DNA of 64,000 nucleotides from a virus (lineage: Duplodnaviria; Caudoviricetes): the IMG/VR virus record IMGVR_UViG_3300033067_001743, positions 1 to 64,000 of that record; one strand, written 5' to 3'. Below are positions 337 through 11,703 of this stretch, one piece after another. Numbering within the stretch: position 1 is the first letter of the stretch; every line of letters begins with the position of its first letter. The translations under genes and the position numbers were made by a program. The notes under the pieces were generated by a model. That model had not been told where the DNA came from. It worked only from the letters and a program-made list of their open reading frames with translations, and searched no databases.

Positions 337-2211
337 CTATTCATTGGTTGGTGTTAAAACATACACTTCTTTTCCAATGACTTTATTTGCTATTAGTGTT
401 GGTGTGTATACTTGAGGTACTTCTGTTGCTATTAATGATTGCTTTCCAATCCTAAACTTTACCAATGTATCATTTGATGTTGGGGACCAGTAGAAGTATC
501 TATTCATCAACCCCTTCCTAAACTCTAAAATGGTCACTCCTGCAATACTTCTATCTGCCTTGAAGGTATAACCATCTAAATTCTTTACAAGCGATTGTAA
601 GGCATTGTAAGAAGGTTTTTTACCGTATGATGTTCCTACACTTGGAACTTCTCCATAAAGTATTCCAGAAGATAAAAATAAACTACCAGTTTTAGCAGAA
701 TTATCATCAATTCCATTATACAAAAATAACTTATCTACTCCACAACTCAATCCTATTAAGAATATTCTCTGTAACCACCAAGATTGTAATTCTTCACTAT
801 TATGATTTCCATACAATTTTGGATACATACTTAACCATTTTACTGTTGGTGCTTGTGTATCATATCCAAATTCACTATACCAAACCTCAGTTCCTTTTGC
901 AAAGTTTTGAGATACGAACTGAACTAAATCTTTTAACCTTAGATCAAGGTTATCTTGCTCTGGACTAACCCCTTCACCTGTTAAGTCAATGCTTGATGCA
1001 GGCCATTTTGGGTCTTTTGAGTTTGAATAGTGGTGTACATTAATTACATCAGCACAGAACCTTTTATCTTTCCGGTTAATTTCAAACCACTTCTTCATTC
1101 TCCAAAGATATTGGATGTTTATTTCAGCCAATCCGGGAAGTACTAACTTCACACTTGGATCAGCATTTTTAACCCCAACATACTGTCCCATTGAACCTTC
1201 ATGTCCATCCCATAAAGCAGACATAAGTGCTGCCATTTGTTCAGGAGTGTATTTGTGAAGATCATCATTCCAAGGTCTATCAGGTTCATTTTCAAACTCA
1301 AAATAAGTAAGTAAATTAAGACCTGACTTTTTCTCATTTATGATGTCACCATTCCATCTTGGTTTTTGGTTTACTTCCAATAAATTACTTGGATAAACTT
1401 TTGATCCATATCTGGCTGTATATTGCCAAGCATATTTTGCAAATTCCAAGTATTCTAAAGGAGTGTTACCTGAATTTGTAGTCCAACACATTCTTCTACT
1501 TCCATCAGCACTCATCCAATCTGGAATTGTATTGATACAGGGAATGGCAGTTACTCCTAATTCTTTCAACTTTGCAAAATATTTATCATAATTTGCATTT
1601 GCTTGAAAAGTTGGCTCAACCATTAATCCATCCCTTGTCCAAGTCCATTGGGACATTTGATAAATCCTTAAATTTGGAAAGATTAGTAGGTCATTTGGAA
1701 TCCAGTGATAACCATTCATTCCAAACTTTTTAGCATCACCAGTTAACTTCTTTAAAACTACTGGTGTGGGAGTTGGCGGAACTACAACATCCTTACCTCC
1801 AAAGAATTCTATTTCTTTAAGTGGCACATCTCCTTGAATGTCAGATATTGACAATGTTAAGTATCGAACCTTTGTTGATACTTCCCTTTCCTGCCATGCC
1901 ATATACAACCCAAGATCAACAGTTAGAATTGTAGTATTATCACTTGTTAAAGTAACAGTAGGTTTCCCAACACCATCAAACAATCTAACCTTTGTAATTG
2001 TAGTAGGTTCTCCAAAATCAAATTGAACCTTTACTGGATACTTTGATGCATCCCAGCCGGGAAACCAACCTGTTTCAGTGTTTCCATCAAATAATAATTC
2101 AACACCCTCTGCTTTACCAGATAATACTGTGCATTTTGGTGTTGGCAGTTTGTTTTGTGCATTCAATTGAATTGAGAATGCAAGTAATATTAAAAGCAAT
2201 ATATGTTTCAT
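337..2211 (-). CDS. secreted clan GH-A glycoside hydrolase with N-terminal discoidin/CBM32-like domain
   Basis: Signal peptide (MKHILLLILLAFSIQLNAQ); LFDGNTETGW...VQFDFG beta-sandwich; PPTPTP linker; ENEPD acid/base and SEFGY nucleophile motifs. Confidence 0.75.
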   Translation of the reverse strand: MKHILLLILLAFSIQLNAQNKLPTPKCTVLSGKAEGVELLFDGNTETGWFPGWDASKYPVKVQFDFGEPTTITKVRLFDGVGKPTVTLTSDNTTILTVDLGLYMAWQEREVSTKVRYLTLSISDIQGDVPLKEIEFFGGKDVVVPPTPTPVVLKKLTGDAKKFGMNGYHWIPNDLLIFPNLRIYQMSQWTWTRDGLMVEPTFQANANYDKYFAKLKELGVTAIPCINTIPDWMSADGSRRMCWTTNSGNTPLEYLEFAKYAWQYTARYGSKVYPSNLLEVNQKPRWNGDIINEKKSGLNLLTYFEFENEPDRPWNDDLHKYTPEQMAALMSALWDGHEGSMGQYVGVKNADPSVKLVLPGLAEINIQYLWRMKKWFEINRKDKRFCADVINVHHYSNSKDPKWPASSIDLTGEGVSPEQDNLDLRLKDLVQFVSQNFAKGTEVWYSEFGYDTQAPTVKWLSMYPKLYGNHNSEELQSWWLQRIFLIGLSCGVDKLFLYNGIDDNSAKTGSLFLSSGILYGEVPSVGTSYGKKPSYNALQSLVKNLDGYTFKADRSIAGVTILEFRKGLMNRYFYWSPTSNDTLVKFRIGKQSLIATEVPQVYTPTLIANKVIGKEVYVLTPTNE

Positions 2212-2584: not shown

Positions 2585-3163
2585 TTAAAATGGATCGCCA
2601 ATTGGTTCAAGAGTTCCAAGAAATCCAACTAAGTCCCCTTTTTCGTTCTTCAACCTTTGTGCAACACCATGAACCTTTTGCTTTCTTCTATCAGAAAGAA
2701 CATAGTGATACTCATGGTCGAAATTTGAATCATTTATTATACATCTCTGCCATTCTTCTATCACATCCTCTTTTTCAAAAATCCAGTTGGTCCAGTTATC
2801 TCCTTTCAACTCTGTTTCTGTCCTTCCAGTGATCTTGCATAAATTTTTGTTTACATCAACACATCTACCCTTTTCATCACTAATCCATGTTCCAATCGGA
2901 AATGACTTTATGATTGCAGTAGTTGTTTGTTGTTGGAGGGATACCTTTGTTTCAATTCGATTGATTGCATCTCTTAATGTACTCCCACCATTAGGTCTAA
3001 ACTCCCCAGCAATGACCTGTATTTTTTGGTATAGGTCAGAAATGTCTTTAAACTTCTGCTTTAACCAAACCTTCCAAACTAATCCACCAACTATACCAAA
3101 AGGTGCCAACAACTCAAGCCAATCTTTAAGCAACCCCAATAAATCTTTTACTGTAATATCCAT
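2585..3163 (-). CDS. membrane-anchored PAS-domain protein (holin-like N-terminus)
   Basis: One TM helix, then NGGSTLRDAINRIE, then PAS signature FPIGTWISDEKGRCVDVNKNLCKITGRTETELKG...GDLVGFLG. Confidence 0.75.
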   Translation of the reverse strand: MDITVKDLLGLLKDWLELLAPFGIVGGLVWKVWLKQKFKDISDLYQKIQVIAGEFRPNGGSTLRDAINRIETKVSLQQQTTTAIIKSFPIGTWISDEKGRCVDVNKNLCKITGRTETELKGDNWTNWIFEKEDVIEEWQRCIINDSNFDHEYHYVLSDRRKQKVHGVAQRLKNEKGDLVGFLGTLEPIGDPF

Positions 3164-3187
3164 TCTTTTCCGATCCTATTATTTTGG

Positions 3188-3225
3188 TTTATGAAAATAC
3201 TTGTTTATACAAGTATTTTCATAAA
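3188..3225. repeat. perfect 17-bp inverted repeat with 4-nt loop
   Basis: TTTATGAAAATACTTGT-ttat-ACAAGTATTTTCATAAA. Confidence 0.9.
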
Positions 3226-3240
3226 TATAGGATTTTAACT

Positions 3241-3723
3241 TCAAAGACAAGATATTTTTTGTATTATTTTTTTCTTATCAGAAAAACTTAATGCGTTTTC
3301 AACATATGATTGATCTTCATCATACTCAATTCTTTGATATTGCATTTTCCATAATTCTTCAAATGTGGACATTGTTGCAATATTTTCAAATGGTATACTG
3401 GAATCGTATGACTTGTTCCCTTCTTCATCATATTCAATTGCCCATTGAGTCCTATACTCAGGGGAACCTTCAACAGTTCCTTCTAAAGTAAGGGTTCCTA
3501 AATCCTGTTGGAATGTTCCTGCCAACTCATCAAAGGAGAAATCTGCCGATGTATTATGTGTTTCAACGAAAGCAAATTCCATATTGCCATCATCTAACTT
3601 TCTCATATACCAATCAAGATACCCACTATAAGCGTAATCCCCTCCATTACTGGAAGTTTCCCACTTATACTTAGAATAATCGTCGTAGGCTTTAAAAGTG
3701 CCAATATGATTCCATTTATTCAT
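3241..3723 (-). CDS. hypothetical acidic protein
   Basis: 160-aa ORF right after the duplicated promoter. Confidence 0.65.
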   Translation of the reverse strand: MNKWNHIGTFKAYDDYSKYKWETSSNGGDYAYSGYLDWYMRKLDDGNMEFAFVETHNTSADFSFDELAGTFQQDLGTLTLEGTVEGSPEYRTQWAIEYDEEGNKSYDSSIPFENIATMSTFEELWKMQYQRIEYDEDQSYVENALSFSDKKKIIQKISCL

Positions 3724-3726
3724 TCA

Positions 3727-3799
3727 CTTAATGTTTATTGTTGTGCAAAGATATGGGCTTAATGTTTATTGTTGTGCAAAGATATGGGCTTAATGTTTA
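3727..3799. repeat. 31-bp tandem repeat (about 2.35 copies) duplicating the -7 promoter box
   Basis: CTTAATGTTTATTGTTGTGCAAAGATATGGG x2 plus CTTAATGTTTA. Confidence 0.9.
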
Positions 3800-3828
3800 A
3801 CCACCAAGCCCATTTGAATATCATTAAC
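3777..3828 (-). promoter_or_regulatory. Bacteroidota-type promoter
   Basis: TATCTTTG at 3777-3784, TTG 20 bp upstream, plus-strand TTAAC at 3824. Confidence 0.65.
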
Positions 3829-3834
3829 AATTAA

Positions 3835-4533
3835 TTATCTTACCATGTATTTTTGGCTATCTGCTTCAACCTTTCGTCTTTTCTTTTCTTCAAGGTGTAT
3901 CATTTGGTATTTGATAACCTTTTGCTTGAATAGGTAGAAGGCTCTGTCTTCTTTGGCTTGATCCCAATTCTTATCAGCATAGTAAAATCTGGGACAGTGT
4001 TTTCCACTCACATCATAATGTCTAACAACTCGACTAATGTCTAAACCTTTGTTAACAAGTTGCCAGCCGATTTGCTGGGCAGTAGTTTCAATTATGAGTG
4101 AGTCGTTTCGTCCACCACCCAAACACATCTCAAATGAGAGAGAATTGTTGTTTCTTATTTTATTGGTTAACCAAGGTTTTGGTATAAATCCAAACCACTT
4201 TTTATCTCCAACTGCATACGCAACATTTCTTTCATCAGTACATTGAACAATTTCTTTGTCATCAATGCAATAGTGCGTTCCAGCACCTTCCTTATTTCTA
4301 AGGTATGTTGCATTCATTCGAGCATCTGCACCCGGATTTGGATTTGCAGTGTAGTGTATAACAAGAAATTCAATGTTATCCCTTCTCTTCTTTACAGTTC
4401 TATCCATTATCTTATAAAAAGATACTGACATAGCAAATGGGATTATAATAGCAATGAACAATGTTAAAATTTTATGATTGATTATCCAATCCGATACTTT
4501 TTTACTTATCTTTTTTAGGGTATTATTTTTCAT
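3835..4533 (-). CDS. N-acetylmuramoyl-L-alanine amidase (Amidase_2 endolysin) with N-terminal TM anchor
   Basis: LVIHYTA, THYCID, NSLSFEMC, VVRHYDVSGKHCP Zn-amidase motifs. Confidence 0.9.
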   Translation of the reverse strand: MKNNTLKKISKKVSDWIINHKILTLFIAIIIPFAMSVSFYKIMDRTVKKRRDNIEFLVIHYTANPNPGADARMNATYLRNKEGAGTHYCIDDKEIVQCTDERNVAYAVGDKKWFGFIPKPWLTNKIRNNNSLSFEMCLGGGRNDSLIIETTAQQIGWQLVNKGLDISRVVRHYDVSGKHCPRFYYADKNWDQAKEDRAFYLFKQKVIKYQMIHLEEKKRRKVEADSQKYMVR

Positions 4534-5174
4534 AGGTCTCCTCTACTTTTTAGAATTTGAATGTATGTATTCATTTTCTCTCTATTCCTCTCAGTCCTAG
4601 ACAATATATTTACAAAATCATGTCTCCACAAGGCTAACTCAAATTTTCTACGTTCATTATGCATTTTTACTACATTACAAGCATGACAACCGTTTTTCTT
4701 ACCTTTACATGGAATTCCAATGTGTGCTCCACATCCTCTACTACCACCACAACATTTCCCTAAACTTGCGCCCGTTTTTGTTAAACCACAATTATATGAA
4801 TATAACTGCAATGCTAAATTTTTTAGTGGGTCTTTGTTTAGTGTTCCATACTTGTTAATTTCCTTGATACTTATTTCAGTAGCCTCATCAAAAGTAACTT
4901 TACCATCATGTGTGTATTTGGCAATTTCTTTTCTTCTCCTTTGACCAAGGTCATTCCAGCCAAAACCAATTGAGTATGCTTTTTTACCTCTATTGTATCC
5001 ATCTGGATACCACCAAGATTTGTAACCTTCATTGGCTTTTATTTCCCAAACTAATATTTGATATGGTGAATATTGTAATTTTGGTGAGATATTTGCGTTT
5101 GCAAATAGTAATATTGTACATATAACAAGGCATATGTGTCCAGCCTTGTTAAGGACAGCGTGTTGTTTATTCAT
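4530..5174 (-). CDS. lysozyme-like (GH24-type) endolysin with signal/SAR segment, Cys-rich
   Basis: IKANEG...YPDG...YSIGFG motif, YSYNCG, RRKFE; hydrophobic N-terminus. Confidence 0.7.
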   Translation of the reverse strand: MNKQHAVLNKAGHICLVICTILLFANANISPKLQYSPYQILVWEIKANEGYKSWWYPDGYNRGKKAYSIGFGWNDLGQRRRKEIAKYTHDGKVTFDEATEISIKEINKYGTLNKDPLKNLALQLYSYNCGLTKTGASLGKCCGGSRGCGAHIGIPCKGKKNGCHACNVVKMHNERRKFELALWRHDFVNILSRTERNREKMNTYIQILKSRGDL

Positions 5175-5620: not shown

Positions 5621-5780
5621 TGTATATTTCTTCTATTGCTTTTATTATTAATGACCTCTCTTCTCTTAAAGAATCAAGGTAGGTTTGTGTTTTCATGTGT
5701 AAGTAGTCACACTCTCCAAGCATTCGGAATAAATCATCTAAACTCAGAGTAGTCTGACCGATCTTCAATTCTGTTTCCAT
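5571..5780 (-). CDS. hypothetical protein
   Basis: 69-aa helical ORF. Confidence 0.5.
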   Translation of the reverse strand: METELKIGQTTLSLDDLFRMLGECDYLHMKTQTYLDSLREERSLIIKAIEEIYNGRQDDSKNMGNTNEL

Positions 5781-6315
5781 AATCTGGTTTTAATTCTGCT
5801 ATAACTTTAGGTGCTTTTCTTAGAAATGATTTAGTGGTTAAGTCCCCATAATATAAAAAGAAACAGTTATAACAAACTATTTCTAAGTTCTCTTTAAGAT
5901 GGTTTCTTGGATTTGAATCTTTAAATACAAGATTTGTTGGTGACTTATAATCTGTTATTCTTTGTTCACAGAATCCACAAATCATACACTTGTCTTCAAA
6001 TATGGCCTCATCAATTAACCTTTCTTTTAGTTTCTTAATGCTATATCCCGGATGTTTTCCTAATAGGATATTATCCATTGTTGCTGTATTATGTAGATGT
6101 TTAACCTTACTAACCTTTTTACCTTGTTTATTTTTATGAAGTTCGTAAAGGTTCTTTCCAGTATCGTGATCATAAAACATCTCTGCATATTTTTTATATG
6201 CTCCAACAGTCATCTGTAAAAATGCTGCTGCCTGATTATTTGAAGATGAATTAGCCATTGCATACCTTACTTCTCTCTCTGTCAGATTGTATGCTGCTTT
6301 TTTCCAACGTGGCAT
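5734..6315 (-). CDS. HNH-like Zn-binding nuclease/DNA-binding protein
   Basis: CMICG...DSNPRNHLKENLEIVCYNC; the catalytic His positions look degenerate. Confidence 0.6.
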   Translation of the reverse strand: MPRWKKAAYNLTEREVRYAMANSSSNNQAAAFLQMTVGAYKKYAEMFYDHDTGKNLYELHKNKQGKKVSKVKHLHNTATMDNILLGKHPGYSIKKLKERLIDEAIFEDKCMICGFCEQRITDYKSPTNLVFKDSNPRNHLKENLEIVCYNCFFLYYGDLTTKSFLRKAPKVIAELKPDYGNRIEDRSDYSEFR

Positions 6316-6316
6316 A

Positions 6317-6637
6317 TTATTCTTTTAATTTATTTTGTTCCCAAACATTCATAAACCAAGTAATGGATGAAAAGAATAGTCCATTCCAAAACCAAGACAA
6401 TGTTGTATAACCAACATACTTAGCAAAGTCAAATAGTATTGGTGTTAATATAAATCCTACCCAAACAGATACACATAAAAAACATGAAATCAATTCATAT
6501 AAAACATTAGCAACTATTGAGGTTTGTCCTTTTACTTTCAACCAGTTTCTAATTGGTCTACTAACCTTTGACTCACTTACTATTTGACTAATCTGGTATA
6601 GTACGAATATTTGAAATATACATTTTAATAATATCAT
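6317..6637 (-). CDS. DUF1360-like membrane protein
   Basis: ELISCFLCVSVWVG motif, 2-3 TM segments. Confidence 0.6.
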   Translation of the reverse strand: MILLKCIFQIFVLYQISQIVSESKVSRPIRNWLKVKGQTSIVANVLYELISCFLCVSVWVGFILTPILFDFAKYVGYTTLSWFWNGLFFSSITWFMNVWEQNKLKE

Positions 6638-7628: not shown

Positions 7629-7964
7629 TCATTTTACAATACTTGCTTTATTAATGCGATCAAACATTTGTTCTATGGAGAATTGCTTCCCTTTTGAACT
7701 AAATATCTTTATATTTTCTAACACATCCACCCTTTCTGTTATTATTGCCTTTTCTAAAAATCTATAACCTTCTAATTTAGTAAATACAGATTCTAGATGA
7801 AAGGTTGTTTTAGTTTTATCTAAATACTTTTTTTGGTAGTGCTCTATGCCGATTTGATTCATCTCCCTGTCACAGTGTTCTTCTGTATTTCCCGGCCACA
7901 AGATGTAAAATTTTATAGTTTCTGGTTTCTTATCCATTGTTCTACTGTCATTGTTGGTTTCCAA
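7629..7964 (-). CDS. hypothetical protein
   Basis: 111-aa ORF. Confidence 0.55.
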   Translation of the reverse strand: METNNDSRTMDKKPETIKFYILWPGNTEEHCDREMNQIGIEHYQKKYLDKTKTTFHLESVFTKLEGYRFLEKAIITERVDVLENIKIFSSKGKQFSIEQMFDRINKASIVK

Positions 7965-8815
7965 TTCAAAATGGCTTCCGCCAAATGATTATGTGCAAGT
8001 GCTATTTTAGGCTCCAATCTTGCTTCAAGATACTGTCTTGGGTGATTTGCATCTATTAAATTGCAAACCTCATTTACAGAATAATTTATACCTGAACCTA
8101 TGTTGAATATCATCCCACCAATATCTTCTATTTTTGATGCTTTTATATTTGCTTCAACTACATCATCAACATAAGTAAAATCTCTTCTCTGGTTGCCATC
8201 TCCATAGATGATAAATGGCTGTTTATTTTTGTATAAATTCAAGAAGTTTGGTAGCATTTGTGGATATTGTCCTGAACTTGGTTGGTTGTCTCCATATACA
8301 TTAAAGTATCTCAAAGATATTGTATCAATGCCATAAATATCGCTATAGAATTGACATAGCATTTCCCCTTGAACCTTTGTAAAAGCATATGGAGATGTTG
8401 GTGATACACTATCGCATCCTTCATTAAATCCTTCAAATCCGGGGTTATTGTCTCCATACACTGAACTACTTGAAGAAAATATAAATCTATTTATCTTCCA
8501 ATATCTACATGCTTCAAGTAGATTTAATGTACCTGTTACATTTGTATCATGGTATTTAATTGGATCAAGGAATGAAGGTTGAACCCTTGCTTTGGCAGCC
8601 AAATGGAATATACACTCCACTCCATCAAATAAATGATGACCCGGATTTAACTTTGATATATCATGTTTATGAAATTCAAACTCTGATTCCCAATCAAAAT
8701 CAGGTGCTGAATTTGAATAGTCATCTATTCCAACTACTTCATAACCCTCTCTTAATAACCTTTTAATTAAATGTCGGGCTATAAATCCATTACAACCCGT
8801 AATTAATACTTTCAT
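7913..8815 (-). CDS. NAD-dependent NDP-sugar epimerase/dehydratase
   Basis: TGCNGFIA, HLAA, SSSSVYG, YAFTK (YxxxK), RYFNVYG, RDFTYVDD. Confidence 0.93.
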   Translation of the reverse strand: MKVLITGCNGFIARHLIKRLLREGYEVVGIDDYSNSAPDFDWESEFEFHKHDISKLNPGHHLFDGVECIFHLAAKARVQPSFLDPIKYHDTNVTGTLNLLEACRYWKINRFIFSSSSSVYGDNNPGFEGFNEGCDSVSPTSPYAFTKVQGEMLCQFYSDIYGIDTISLRYFNVYGDNQPSSGQYPQMLPNFLNLYKNKQPFIIYGDGNQRRDFTYVDDVVEANIKASKIEDIGGMIFNIGSGINYSVNEVCNLIDANHPRQYLEARLEPKIALAHNHLAEAILNWKPTMTVEQWIRNQKL

Positions 8816-9033
8816 ATTGATTCTTTGCTAACTTTTAATACTTCTCTTGAACTTGTTATCATTACTCTATTATCATTCATCACTGTTTTATATTTGTATT
8901 TTGGTATATCATAGTGTGGATGTCCTTTCCTTACTCCCTCAAACCAACATCTCTTTATACCAATCTCATTGCAGAAGTTGTGTAACTCTTCTATACTGTT
9001 TGCTACTAAATGTATCCTATCTGTGTAGATCAT
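8812..9033 (-). CDS. DUF4031-like protein
   Basis: HLVANSIEELHNF...IGIKRCWF...HPHYDI. Confidence 0.75.
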   Translation of the reverse strand: MIYTDRIHLVANSIEELHNFCNEIGIKRCWFEGVRKGHPHYDIPKYKYKTVMNDNRVMITSSREVLKVSKESI

Positions 9034-9314
9034 ACTAATTTATATCTTACAATATATCCACCCCTTGAAGAAAAGTCTCCTTCATTGTATGGTGGTATGT
9101 ATTCTATACTCATAAAATAAATTTCATTTTCTGGATGATTACTATTTAACTCTTTAAAAACCTTTTCAGCAAAATCATCATCCATAATTTCATCTTTTCC
9201 TGTAACTGATTGTAATTTTCTTGTCTTATATCCATCATCAGAAACAGGCTTTATTGTGTCAGGATAGTTTTTCACTAATTTATTAACTATTGACCTTTCT
9301 ACACTTACTATCAT
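9030..9314 (-). CDS. hypothetical protein
   Basis: 94-aa ORF with 4-nt overlaps to both neighbours. Confidence 0.55.
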   Translation of the reverse strand: MIVSVERSIVNKLVKNYPDTIKPVSDDGYKTRKLQSVTGKDEIMDDDFAEKVFKELNSNHPENEIYFMSIEYIPPYNEGDFSSRGGYIVRYKLV

Positions 9315-10582
9315 ATTTTTATTAAATTATTTTCATAATGGGTTAATGCTTTTATATTCAACTTTAGATTCCCTAATTCAAATTCTCCTATGTCTCCACT
9401 ATCTGTTAGTATATCACTGAGATTGCAAATAACAGAATAATCATTTTGATCGAACCTTTGTCCATCTATTTCAACAACTACATCAGGAATGGTTCCTATA
9501 CTCTCCACGATTCGTTCAGTTAAACGATATTTGGTATTAGGCTGTTCTATGCTTATATACTCTGAGACTTGATCGTAGGGCAAATCTGTGACTATTTTAT
9601 CACACCAAATCTCAAGTGCTGGTAACAGTTGTGGTACACAATTCTTAACTACGATGCCAATATTGTATTTATGTGGAATGATTGGATGTAAATATTCATC
9701 ATGTCTAACCATTGATCCCCACTTTCTTATAAAATTTCTGGTTGATTTTAAATTTTGTGCTTCCCATTCAGAACTGTTAGTTCCTACTTGAGTAATGTTA
9801 GGATTAAACCGGCTTCCTCTACATGTTAAGTGATAAACAAATCCGTTCCAAGTCTGTATAAATTCACATCCATTTAATTTGAAACGATTGAATATATCAG
9901 AATCTTCCTTGCTTTGTGGTGCATACAATGGATCATGTCCACCAATGGCTTTAAACTCATCAACCCAAAACGCCCACGGCGCAAAAACTCCATTAGTTTT
10001 TGAGTTAGCACCAATGCTACCACTATCACGAGAAAATTGTTGTAGCAATTCCATCTCTTTGAAATTTTCTGGTTCAGTACCAAAATCTACAACTACTTTT
10101 TCTGGTCCTGATGGATGAAGTGGAGGTTCAATTCGAGTGAGACTGACAATTCTATTTTTAATTGGATAAAAATTTAAAACTAAATTTCCGTCTAACCTTC
10201 TAACTCTTGGATGAGTTTTTATAGATTTATCTATTTCTTTTTTCTTGATGTACATATAAGCCTCAATAGCATCTAATGCTCCCGGAACTAAATACATGTC
10301 ACTATGAAAGATCATTGCAATATCAGTATCAACTATTTCATTGATAATCCGATCATATATAATTGTATGGCCTAACCTTTTACCAGTTGTATTTTCTATT
10401 GATTTTACTAATGGATCGACCTTCTTAATTTCTTCAATCCATTCTTGAGTTCCATCTGTGCAATGATCTATTCCATAACAAATGTGAACCTCATGGTTTT
10501 CTTGATTTTTGCGAATAGAATCATAAGACCACTTCAAATACTTGAGGTTATCCCTTGTACTTACTACTAAACTAATTTTCAT
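9311..10582 (-). CDS. GT2-family glycosyltransferase
   Basis: KISLVVSTRDN, GIDHCTDGT, FHSDM, GGHDPLY...EDSD. Confidence 0.85.
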   Translation of the reverse strand: MKISLVVSTRDNLKYLKWSYDSIRKNQENHEVHICYGIDHCTDGTQEWIEEIKKVDPLVKSIENTTGKRLGHTIIYDRIINEIVDTDIAMIFHSDMYLVPGALDAIEAYMYIKKKEIDKSIKTHPRVRRLDGNLVLNFYPIKNRIVSLTRIEPPLHPSGPEKVVVDFGTEPENFKEMELLQQFSRDSGSIGANSKTNGVFAPWAFWVDEFKAIGGHDPLYAPQSKEDSDIFNRFKLNGCEFIQTWNGFVYHLTCRGSRFNPNITQVGTNSSEWEAQNLKSTRNFIRKWGSMVRHDEYLHPIIPHKYNIGIVVKNCVPQLLPALEIWCDKIVTDLPYDQVSEYISIEQPNTKYRLTERIVESIGTIPDVVVEIDGQRFDQNDYSVICNLSDILTDSGDIGEFELGNLKLNIKALTHYENNLIKI

Positions 10583-10736
10583 TTTCTATTGATTTGATTT
10601 TATCTAATCGCTTCTTATTTTTTATTGTTCTATTTGATTCACAAACTGGACAAGTACCATTATTCTTACATGAACTGTCTATTGACTTGGCTCCTGTTAG
10701 TTCATGTCTCCTATCTTTTCTGGTTTTGTGTTTCAT
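10572..10736 (-). CDS. small basic Cys-containing protein (below ORF-track cutoff)
   Basis: Translated by hand: MKHKTRKDRRHELTGAKSIDSSCKNNGTCPVCESNR..., 54 aa, fills the gap. Confidence 0.6.
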   Translation of the reverse strand: MKHKTRKDRRHELTGAKSIDSSCKNNGTCPVCESNRTIKNKKRLDKIKSIENEN

Positions 10737-10746
10737 CTTAATTATC

Positions 10747-11703
10747 TCAAAAATATGAATTGAATTTATCTAAAAATACTTTTTCTGTAAAGTTGTCATC
10801 ATATGCCTTTTTTGCATAAGCGTAACAATAATTGTAAAAGATAGGATTTTCTTTTAGATGTTTTGCTGCTTTCCTTGCTGAGACCATATCTCCCTCCTTA
10901 AACGAAAGTTCGGGGAAACATAGTCTTTGTGTATCTAAATAATCCCACCCAATACAGGGAATGCCTAACCTTGCACAATTTAAGGAAAAGGTTCCGGCTG
11001 CATAAGTTCTCATTAAATGAACTGCATACTTTCTCTTTGATAGTTCTACTATCCACTGTTTCCATTCCATGTATGGTAGATATTCAATGCCTTCAATATT
11101 AGTTTCTTCTGCATGTTTCCTTCCCATAGATGGAGCATAAATTTGCTCATCAAACTCTTGAGCAATAAAGTAAGAATCTTGACCTGAATACCATTCTGTC
11201 CAATTTCCTCCAACCATACAACCCGACCTATTTTCTTTACTGGTTAATTGCATAATTGGAATAGCATCTTCTATCATAAGACTTGGCAAAATTGAAACCT
11301 GCTTATCTGGAAACAAACCTTTATAGTATAATTTATCTGCCTCATTATGACAAAAAATAATATCACAATCATTTAAAAAGTTTATGTATTGAAACTGATC
11401 AAATATTGTTCCATTTTGCCAGTAGGTTTGATTTGCCTCTTGCATCGTTGCCCATTTTCCACACCTATGTTTGTTCTTCTCATAGCAACTAAATGCTAAG
11501 TGTGGATTCTTTTTTGGAACTATTACAATTCCAAGATCAAAATTTCCCTGAAATTGGGAATTAATGTCTAAACAGCAATCCAATGATAATACTGTTGCAT
11601 TAAGTGCAACACTCCATGCAACATCAGTTCTCATATTGGGAAAATTCCTTGGATAATATGATCCAATAGTAGTTCCCATCTCACTAAAAAATGCTACTCT
11701 CAT
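10747..11703 (-). CDS. putative GT-B glycosyltransferase
   Basis: MRVAFFSE start, CDIIFCHN, AGTFSLNCARLGIPCIG C-terminal GT-B-like motif; cluster context. Confidence 0.6.
   Translation of the reverse strand: MRVAFFSEMGTTIGSYYPRNFPNMRTDVAWSVALNATVLSLDCCLDINSQFQGNFDLGIVIVPKKNPHLAFSCYEKNKHRCGKWATMQEANQTYWQNGTIFDQFQYINFLNDCDIIFCHNEADKLYYKGLFPDKQVSILPSLMIEDAIPIMQLTSKENRSGCMVGGNWTEWYSGQDSYFIAQEFDEQIYAPSMGRKHAEETNIEGIEYLPYMEWKQWIVELSKRKYAVHLMRTYAAGTFSLNCARLGIPCIGWDYLDTQRLCFPELSFKEGDMVSARKAAKHLKENPIFYNYCYAYAKKAYDDNFTEKVFLDKFNSYF

Follow-up and report, generated by a model that had tools for sequence, protein, structure and literature searches.

The window analysed here is a stretch of 64,000 nucleotides (nt) and represents the first 64 kb of the IMG/VR virus record IMGVR_UViG_3300033067_001743 (Duplodnaviria; Caudoviricetes), which has a length of 122,495 bp and an estimated completeness of 67%. 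Its G+C content is about 32% and the minus strand carries nearly all genes. Close to the beginning of the window a lysin cluster was found, which encodes, in transcription order, a lysozyme-like protein (4530-5174), an amidase (3835-4533) and a small protein with a predicted membrane anchor and a PAS domain (2585-3163), the main subject of this work. A sequence-only reading of the region had interpreted the arrangement as a lysis cassette in which a holin-like protein or anti-holin, fused to a PAS sensor, times the activation of two membrane-anchored lysins. All three ORFs were confirmed on the minus strand, and the interpretation as a whole is partly supported by the results described below.

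ORF 2585-3163 (minus strand) encodes a protein of 192 amino acids (aa), designated TM-PNGGS-PAS protein for its N-terminal transmembrane (TM) helix, a conserved PNGGS motif and the PAS domain. The assignment is based on the ORF, the Pfam PAS match, 88 homologs of the same architecture and an AlphaFold2 (AF2) model. The PAS domain (aa 83-188; 2600-2917, minus strand) was recognized by Pfam, AF2 and Foldseek. The PF00989 match at residues 83-188 (E 7.1e-10) reached 39.3 bits with a cut-off of 22.6, and the profiles PAS_9 (PF13426; E 1.5e-8, 35.3 bits, cut-off 27) and PAS_3 (PF08447; E 1e-5, 26.2 bits, cut-off 25.6) matched as well. In the AF2 model, which was built on an alignment of 58 sequences, the predicted local distance difference test score (pLDDT) is 86 overall and exceeds 90 in the PAS core, whose strands 91-95, 101-104, 148-155, 161-172 and 178-188 form a five-stranded antiparallel sheet with flanking helices. 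Comparison with solved PAS and LOV domains by Foldseek yielded a probability of 1.0 and target-normalised TM-scores of 0.7-0.83. The chain stops four residues past the last PAS strand and is therefore devoid of an output domain, so that the claim of a PAS fold without kinase or other effector was borne out. The best sequence relatives in the PDB are generic sensor domains of the PAS_3 type. An assignment as LOV, flavin or heme domain was dropped, because the similarity exists at the level of the fold only.

The N-terminal hydrophobic helix (aa 16-34; 3062-3118, minus strand) is a predicted membrane anchor. Its hydrophobic core L18-L34, LLAPFGIVGGLVWKVWL, is Gly-rich, contains one embedded Lys and has a Kyte-Doolittle value of 1.67 over 17 residues; in distant homologs the corresponding segments are more clearly TM helices than in the window protein. 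Averaged over 58 homologs, the N-terminal segment as a whole carries a net charge of -0.8 and the 15 aa past the helix one of +2.5. Under the positive-inside rule this bias leads to a predicted N-out/C-in topology with a cytoplasmic PAS domain. According to the AF2 model a continuous helix (5-55) is followed by a low-confidence break at P57-N58-G59-G60, where the pLDDT dips (57-60), and by a second helix (63-87). The juxtamembrane motif E54-FR-PNGGS-T-LRDAINRIE71 (2951-3004, minus strand) is located at this break between both helices, and its form E54-x2-PNGGS-x-LRDAINRIE71 is fully or almost fully conserved. Residues 58-71, NGGSTLRDAINRIE, are invariant or nearly so across the 58 homologs. 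The motif alone is covered by a match to phrog_9869 at residues 53-81 (profile positions 67-95 of 98), with E 2.5e-6 for the full protein and 5.9e-7 for aa 1-85. The Pfam scan of ORF 2585-3163 matched no holin family.

Of the two lysins, the one transcribed first is a divergent T4-lysozyme-like (GH24-like) protein of 214 aa (4530-5174, minus strand). Pfam, PHROG and PDB sequence searches with this protein gave no match, and its assignment is based on invariant residues, AF2 and Foldseek. Its family comprises over 100 proteins; E49-x8-D58 and the motif SIGFG are invariant in 43 homologs, and the spacing is that of E11-x8-D20 in T4 lysozyme. The AF2 model has a pLDDT of 92 and its top Foldseek matches are all T4 lysozyme, at a weak level (E ~5e-3, 117 columns, ~20% identity). 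The stop of this gene and the start of the next one overlap by 4 nt. The latter encodes an N-acetylmuramoyl-L-alanine amidase (Amidase_2) of 232 aa (3835-4533, minus strand), identified by Pfam (PF01510, E 7e-14, 52.7 bits, cut-off 26) and PHROG (phrog_670, endolysin, 3e-29). The amidase begins with a Lys-rich tail, followed by a strongly hydrophobic signal-anchor helix (I22-Y40, nt 4414-4470), and both elements are retained in six homologs. In the lysozyme-like protein an N-terminal signal or anchor comprises aa 12-27 (nt 5094-5141), is signal-like and ends at the invariant A27-N28. Hydrophobic N-termini were thus found on both lysins, as the sequence-only reading had it; as to the anchoring itself, sequence can not separate a retained anchor from a signal cleaved by signal peptidase.

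Between the amidase and the PAS gene lies an ORF for a soluble protein of 160 aa (3241-3723, minus strand), which was without match in Pfam and PHROG scans. The PAS gene is therefore not the next gene downstream of the amidase, in contrast to the earlier description. The intervening position is a variable slot: the homolog of the 160-aa ORF is located downstream of the PAS gene in locus L002, and relatives fill the slot with other small genes. From the lysins to the PAS gene the coding strand is free of terminator-like sites, and the PAS gene is probably co-transcribed with the lysins.

Relatives of the whole protein were collected by a word-indexed search, which yielded 88 clusters that share its architecture and have lengths of 178-206 aa. 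All of them are derived from uncultured phages, with contigs of up to 229 kb. Neighborhoods were read for relatives with 66, 56, 62, 53 and 44% identity. The order lysozyme-like gene, Amidase_2 gene, zero to two small genes and PAS gene was present in six lineages (the window, L002, L003/L004, L089, L169/L170 and L171/L172) covering 95-44% identity. The small genes between amidase and PAS are mutually non-homologous among these syntenic loci, and the genes past the PAS gene differ from locus to locus: the window has a glycoside hydrolase there, L169 has a papain-like Peptidase_C1, and further loci have other genes. The peptidase (312 aa; L169:6680-7618, L170:3580-4518) is encoded directly downstream of the PAS gene in the relative with 44% identity. 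Moreover, at least 14 pairs of PAS and lysozyme clusters have a longest contig of equal size, and some of these contigs are just 4-7 kb long.

Within 50,697 cultured phage records, DNA and protein searches with the region and the PAS protein were empty; up to an E value of 10, chance matches to tape-measure genes of Klebsiella phages were the only ones obtained. Consequently, no cultured phage with this fusion is at hand. Proteins of 240 and 172 aa with a helix and a PAS domain (BFVD R9ZZL0, S0A2B2), encoded by the Cellulophaga phages phi19:1 and phi18:3, have a similar predicted shape at about 11-12% identity; these phages would be possible cultured test systems among the Bacteroidota phages, if the proteins are related. 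One contig, L007, encodes a second PAS protein of 141 aa, which lacks an anchor (L007:7608-8033), 3 kb downstream of its TM-PNGGS-PAS gene.

The N-terminal part of the protein also occurs without PAS domain. With residues 1-85 as query, a full HMMER scan over 1.84 billion representatives yielded 42 proteins, comprising PAS fusions from diverse lineages, one tandem form and many stand-alone proteins. The latter have 87-150 aa and consist of a TM helix, the motif PNGGS-x-LRD-x2-NR-x-E and a short coiled coil; dozens of further stand-alone genes with 64-145 aa were detected in a scan of IMG/VR. In this common layout, to which the window protein conforms, the motif follows the N-terminal TM helix within about 15 residues, and the stand-alone relatives end in a short helical tail. 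The N-out/C-in orientation, predicted by positive-inside statistics, fits 28 of 30 non-redundant stand-alone members. In the tandem form (P0124, 385 aa) a TM helix, the PNGGS motif and a PAS domain are followed by a degenerate second motif (NGKSLVEIINSIE) and a second PAS domain; motif-helix and PAS appear to duplicate as one unit. A tblastn search with the stand-alone member P0107 gave no match.

The sequence-only reading had stated that motifs of the type NGGS(S/T)LRD occur in small membrane proteins of lysis cassettes, and this link was found in cultured and in many uncultured phages. In Streptomyces phage mu1/6, gp52 matches the entire phrog_9869 profile (2e-32) and its gene overlaps the holin gene gp51, which follows the endolysin gene gp50. 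Gene 040 of Thermobifida phage P1312 (L087:4866-5309) overlaps the amidase gene 041, and gp22 of Arthrobacter phage Sonali is followed by endolysin gp23 and holin gp24. The gene of the freshwater member P0129 is located after an NlpC/P60 gene. Among the 102 neighbors within two genes of 30 non-redundant stand-alone loci from IMG/VR, we found CHAP, Peptidase_M15_4, NlpC/P60, M23 and GH25 domains as well as five endolysin PHROGs. In one large group the stand-alone gene is flanked by a large tail-fibre-like gene on one side and, on the other, by an endolysin PHROG or phrog_32486. Members of the module from actinophages match phrog_15431 as well, which is annotated as holin (E 1e-10 to 4e-5). With XhlA, the lysis protein of PBSX, solely insignificant coiled-coil matches far below the cut-off were obtained (E 0.005-0.04) and this candidate was rejected.

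Two annotations in these regions deserve a comment. The product of P1312_040 is mis-annotated as "sensory protein kinase CreC" and represents a TM-PNGGS protein of the lysis region. The unannotated phrog_32486 (~150 aa) fills the endolysin slot after the PNGGS gene in several freshwater phages (L028:4235-4705, L055:2500-2952, L066:1419-1898, L074:1244-1690). A PDB sequence search gave no usable match for this neighbor; a protein atlas, as a lead from a language model, relates it to VldE/ARB_07466-like domains of the M15 type, so that phrog_32486 may be an unannotated endolysin family.

The surroundings of the lysin cluster are given by the transcription order 6317-6637, 5734-6315, two small ORFs, 4530-5174, 3835-4533, 3241-3723, 2585-3163, 2370-2561 and 337-2211. 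ORF 6317-6637 (minus strand) encodes a protein of 106 aa with two to three TM helices and weak matches to DUF1360 and phrog_781. In L002 and L003 it has been retained at a distance of about 1-2 kb on the upstream side of the lysins, and it is, speculatively, the sole holin-like candidate near the cluster. It is followed by an HNH endonuclease gene (5734-6315, minus strand; phrog_14736, E 3e-14), whose homologs occupy the same position in L002 and L003 and which the two small ORFs separate from the lysozyme-like gene. After the PAS gene, an ORF of 63 aa (2370-2561) and the gene of a secreted glycoside-hydrolase-like protein of 624 aa (337-2211, minus strand) are transcribed; a Sec signal and a large C-terminal domain were recognized in the latter protein, which also matches F5/8 type C weakly. 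The lysis region is closely preceded, on its upstream side, by genes for a nucleotide-sugar epimerase and two glycosyltransferase-like proteins (7913-11703, minus strand), and the epimerase is found at the matching position in L002 and L169.

Based on domain content, predicted topology and gene order, we tentatively propose, at a little less than even chances, that ORF 2585-3163 encodes a membrane-tethered cytoplasmic PAS protein which acts through its PNGGS-LRD module on the exported lysins, or on a holin-like partner, and modulates their release or activation. Any role in lysis and any sensing by the PAS protein are thereby properties which we infer. The N-terminal module would be built from a short tip in the periplasm, a single TM helix and, next to the membrane, a helix that leads over the PNGGS turn into the LRDAINRIE helix, as in the stand-alone proteins of lysis cassettes. 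It would work within the inner membrane or at it, with the Sec-exported, signal-anchored amidase and lysozyme as targets, in a way similar to a releasin; an alternative target would be a holin-like partner, which might be activated as by the actinophage protein LysF1b. The PAS domain would take the place of the charged C-terminal helix of the stand-alone forms and might tie the action of the module to a cytoplasmic cue such as a ligand, the redox state or the energy state. In a more specific scenario the PAS domain senses a cytoplasmic metabolite, redox or energy cue and in this way controls a membrane module of the releasin or LysF1b kind, by which the two Sec-exported lysins are freed or activated; this scenario has to be regarded as doubtful.

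A number of observations weigh against a lysis-specific function, most of them from distantly related fusions. From 33 non-redundant PAS-fused loci, the 30 outside the close clade were scanned with three genes on each side, and the 146 neighbors included one endolysin and one holin PHROG only. A lack of linkage between homologs and lysis genes, which the sequence-only reading had named as a refutation, was thus seen in part: the six lineages of the close clade show the linkage, the distant fusions largely do not. Terminase, tail or virion, sigma factor and replication genes are as common or commoner in their vicinity. The terminase large subunit (TerL) is encoded near at least three of them: one gene lies directly between TerL and portal (L017:3938-4498), and in L018 and L113 TerL is found within two genes. 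In L095 the fusion gene is flanked by tail-fibre-like and virion structural genes, and in L090 it is also near tail-fibre/virion proteins. A homolog with 46% identity (L005:4602-5213) is encoded between proteins of 1,518 and 2,090 aa, the latter with a weak ART-PolyVal match. In L008 and L009 the fusions are located among replication genes, and in neither of these loci nor in L007 does a lysin adjoin the PAS-fusion gene. A tie to lysis genes is thus a property of the window's clade and of the PAS-less module, not of the fusion in general. Since the distant fusions are mostly found away from lysins, the linkage in the close clade could be inherited gene order. Further points on the same side are that Foldseek and PDB sequence comparison revealed neither a LOV Cys motif nor a recognizable cofactor or ligand signature in the PAS domain, and that the enrichment of lysins near the stand-alone module is qualitative. 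The one TM helix claimed for the protein exists as a single hydrophobic helix, but its hydropathy is only moderate, and a TM helix is therefore plausible rather than strong for this clade.

These data would be explained by a general membrane-bound PAS sensor of the late phase, which is not specific for lysis, might couple virion assembly, packaging or the physiology of the host membrane to a cytoplasmic signal and lies close to lysins in the window clade by inheritance. We consider such a sensor possible, if rather unlikely. The distant loci next to TerL and portal, tail and virion genes, giant proteins and replication genes as well as the scarcity of endolysins and holins among the scanned neighbors are in its favor. 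It has to face, however, that the synteny with the lysins outlasts the turnover of intervening and downstream genes over 44-95% identity, and that the stand-alone module is repeatedly coupled translationally to endolysin and holin genes in unrelated phages.

That the PAS protein itself is the holin, i.e., a hole-former with one TM helix and a globular regulatory domain in analogy to class III holins, seems improbable. The lysin cluster contains no other membrane protein inside, and the phrog_15431 matches of the actinophage members point in the same direction. Nevertheless, the hydrophobic helix is weak and single, and the related-looking LysA2b alone is reportedly not cytotoxic in M. smegmatis (10.64898/2026.08.27.747656). 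The predicted topology is opposite to that of T4 T: LysF1b-type proteins and the Mu releasin have the N-out/C-in arrangement, whereas T4 T and RI do not. The label of a holin-like protein or anti-holin is not supported. In addition, both lysins have export signals of their own and would need release or activation instead of a large hole. It appears equally improbable that the protein is a decoy or modulator of host signaling, whose PAS domain pairs with the PAS domains of membrane-bound host sensor kinases and rewires late host responses. PAS domains commonly form homo- and heterodimers, and this habit, the lack of an output domain and the membrane location shared with host sensor kinases are compatible with a decoy. 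No specific similarity to the PAS domain of a host kinase was found, as the best PDB matches are generic, and a decoy leaves the invariant PNGGS-LRD module unexplained, which is common to the PAS-less proteins of lysis cassettes.

The timing of lysis sets burst size and phage fitness. Known lysis timers are holin clocks, and known sensory input, as in the lysis inhibition of T4 and ICP1, is periplasmic. If the proposed modulation of lysis by the PAS protein is true, with its cytoplasmic sensor wired to a membrane module of lysis cassettes, phages would be able to adjust the time of lysis to conditions inside the host cell. It would also give a function to the widespread unannotated family phrog_9869, whose members are labeled as hypothetical or "sensory protein kinase CreC", would extend LysF1b-type regulators with one transmembrane domain (TMD) beyond the actinophages and might provide engineering with a ligand-gated lysis switch. 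Should the gating by a cytoplasmic cue hold as well, the protein would represent the first lysis timer that contains its own intracellular sensor, and its design would be modular, with a PNGGS-LRD membrane module used with or without sensor across many phage lineages.

In the literature we found no described PAS domain on a membrane protein of a lysis cassette, and searches for motif strings of the PNGGS/NGGSS type returned unrelated papers only. Partial parallels exist to several known regulators. With the T4 holin T and its antiholins RI/RIII, which bring about lysis inhibition, the similarity is one of concept: a globular sensor domain on a lysis protein with one TM helix times lysis in response to a signal (PMC6832632). 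The T4 sensor domains are periplasmic and sense superinfection, whereas the PAS domain of the window protein is predicted to be cytoplasmic, in opposite topology and without relation in sequence or fold. VqmA-Phage of vibriophage VP882 is likewise a PAS receptor of a phage and couples a lysis decision to a small-molecule signal (PMC8284805). It is, however, a soluble transcription factor with PAS and DNA-binding domains that acts in the lysis-lysogeny switch, while the window protein would be membrane-bound and has neither a DNA-binding nor another output domain.

A resemblance in architecture and, weakly, in sequence was observed to the lysis regulators of mycobacteriophages LysF1b (Girr gp35, NormanBulbieJr gp33) and its D29 counterpart LysA2b (gp30), which possess one N-terminal TMD in N-out/C-in orientation and a charged helical tail, act together with a 2-TMD protein and cause small plaques and altered lysis timing when deleted (10.64898/2025.12.04.692442; 10.64898/2026.08.27.747656). 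Shared features are the single N-terminal TMD, the N-out/C-in topology (predicted here), basic residues past the TMD and a cytoplasmic part, furthermore a polar motif ending in LRD-x-I-x-R about 15-17 residues past the TMD and a gene position within or next to lysis cassettes or where tail and lysis genes meet. In the positive-inside statistics, 58 PAS forms and 30 stand-alone members agree with 17 DUF2746 proteins. D29 gp30 (L088:4297-4563) is a member of Pfam DUF2746 and of phrog_404, a family annotated as "minor tail protein", and within its own family the motif QVSN-x-HDENLRDEITRGF, located about 17 residues past the TMD, is invariant. Five of ten stand-alone PNGGS proteins matched phrog_404 over nearly their full length (E 4e-4 to 8e-3), and hhalign of the stand-alone and D29 gp30 family profiles placed TM on TM and LRD on LRD (probability 50%, E 1.6e-4); an alignment of the stand-alone forms to the single D29 gp30 sequence was uninformative. 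This possible kinship has its own counter-evidence: neither the N-terminus of the window protein nor the stand-alone members matched DUF2746 or DUF2730 at E values of up to 10, the window protein did not match phrog_404, and the phrog_404 matches may partly reflect the composition of TM helix and coiled coil. The homology is thus borderline and speaks for a shared architecture with possible distant homology, not for membership. The window protein differs by its motif PNGGS-x-LRDA-x-NRIE in place of SN-x-HDENLRDEITRGF, by a PAS domain where the highly charged helical tail stands, by a phage host that is probably not an actinobacterium and by lysins which are exported. As counterpart of the 2-TMD partner of LysF1b, ORF 6317-6637 is the only nearby multi-TM candidate in the window.

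In one of these preprints LysF1b itself is likened to the releasin gp25 of phage Mu. Mu gp25, a membrane-tethered cytoplasmic protein, is needed for a signal-arrest-release (SAR) endolysin to be set free, and this need has been mapped to lysines in the short cytoplasmic tail of the endolysin (PMC9239132). The window protein differs from gp25 (DUF2730) in its PAS domain and in the absence of a DUF2730 match, and the anchor of the window amidase is strongly hydrophobic and not SAR-like. By prediction the window protein shares with gp25 an N-terminal TMD, a cytoplasmic body and a gene near that of a signal-anchored endolysin, and the parallel is suggestive because both window lysins are exported and the tail of the amidase is rich in Lys.

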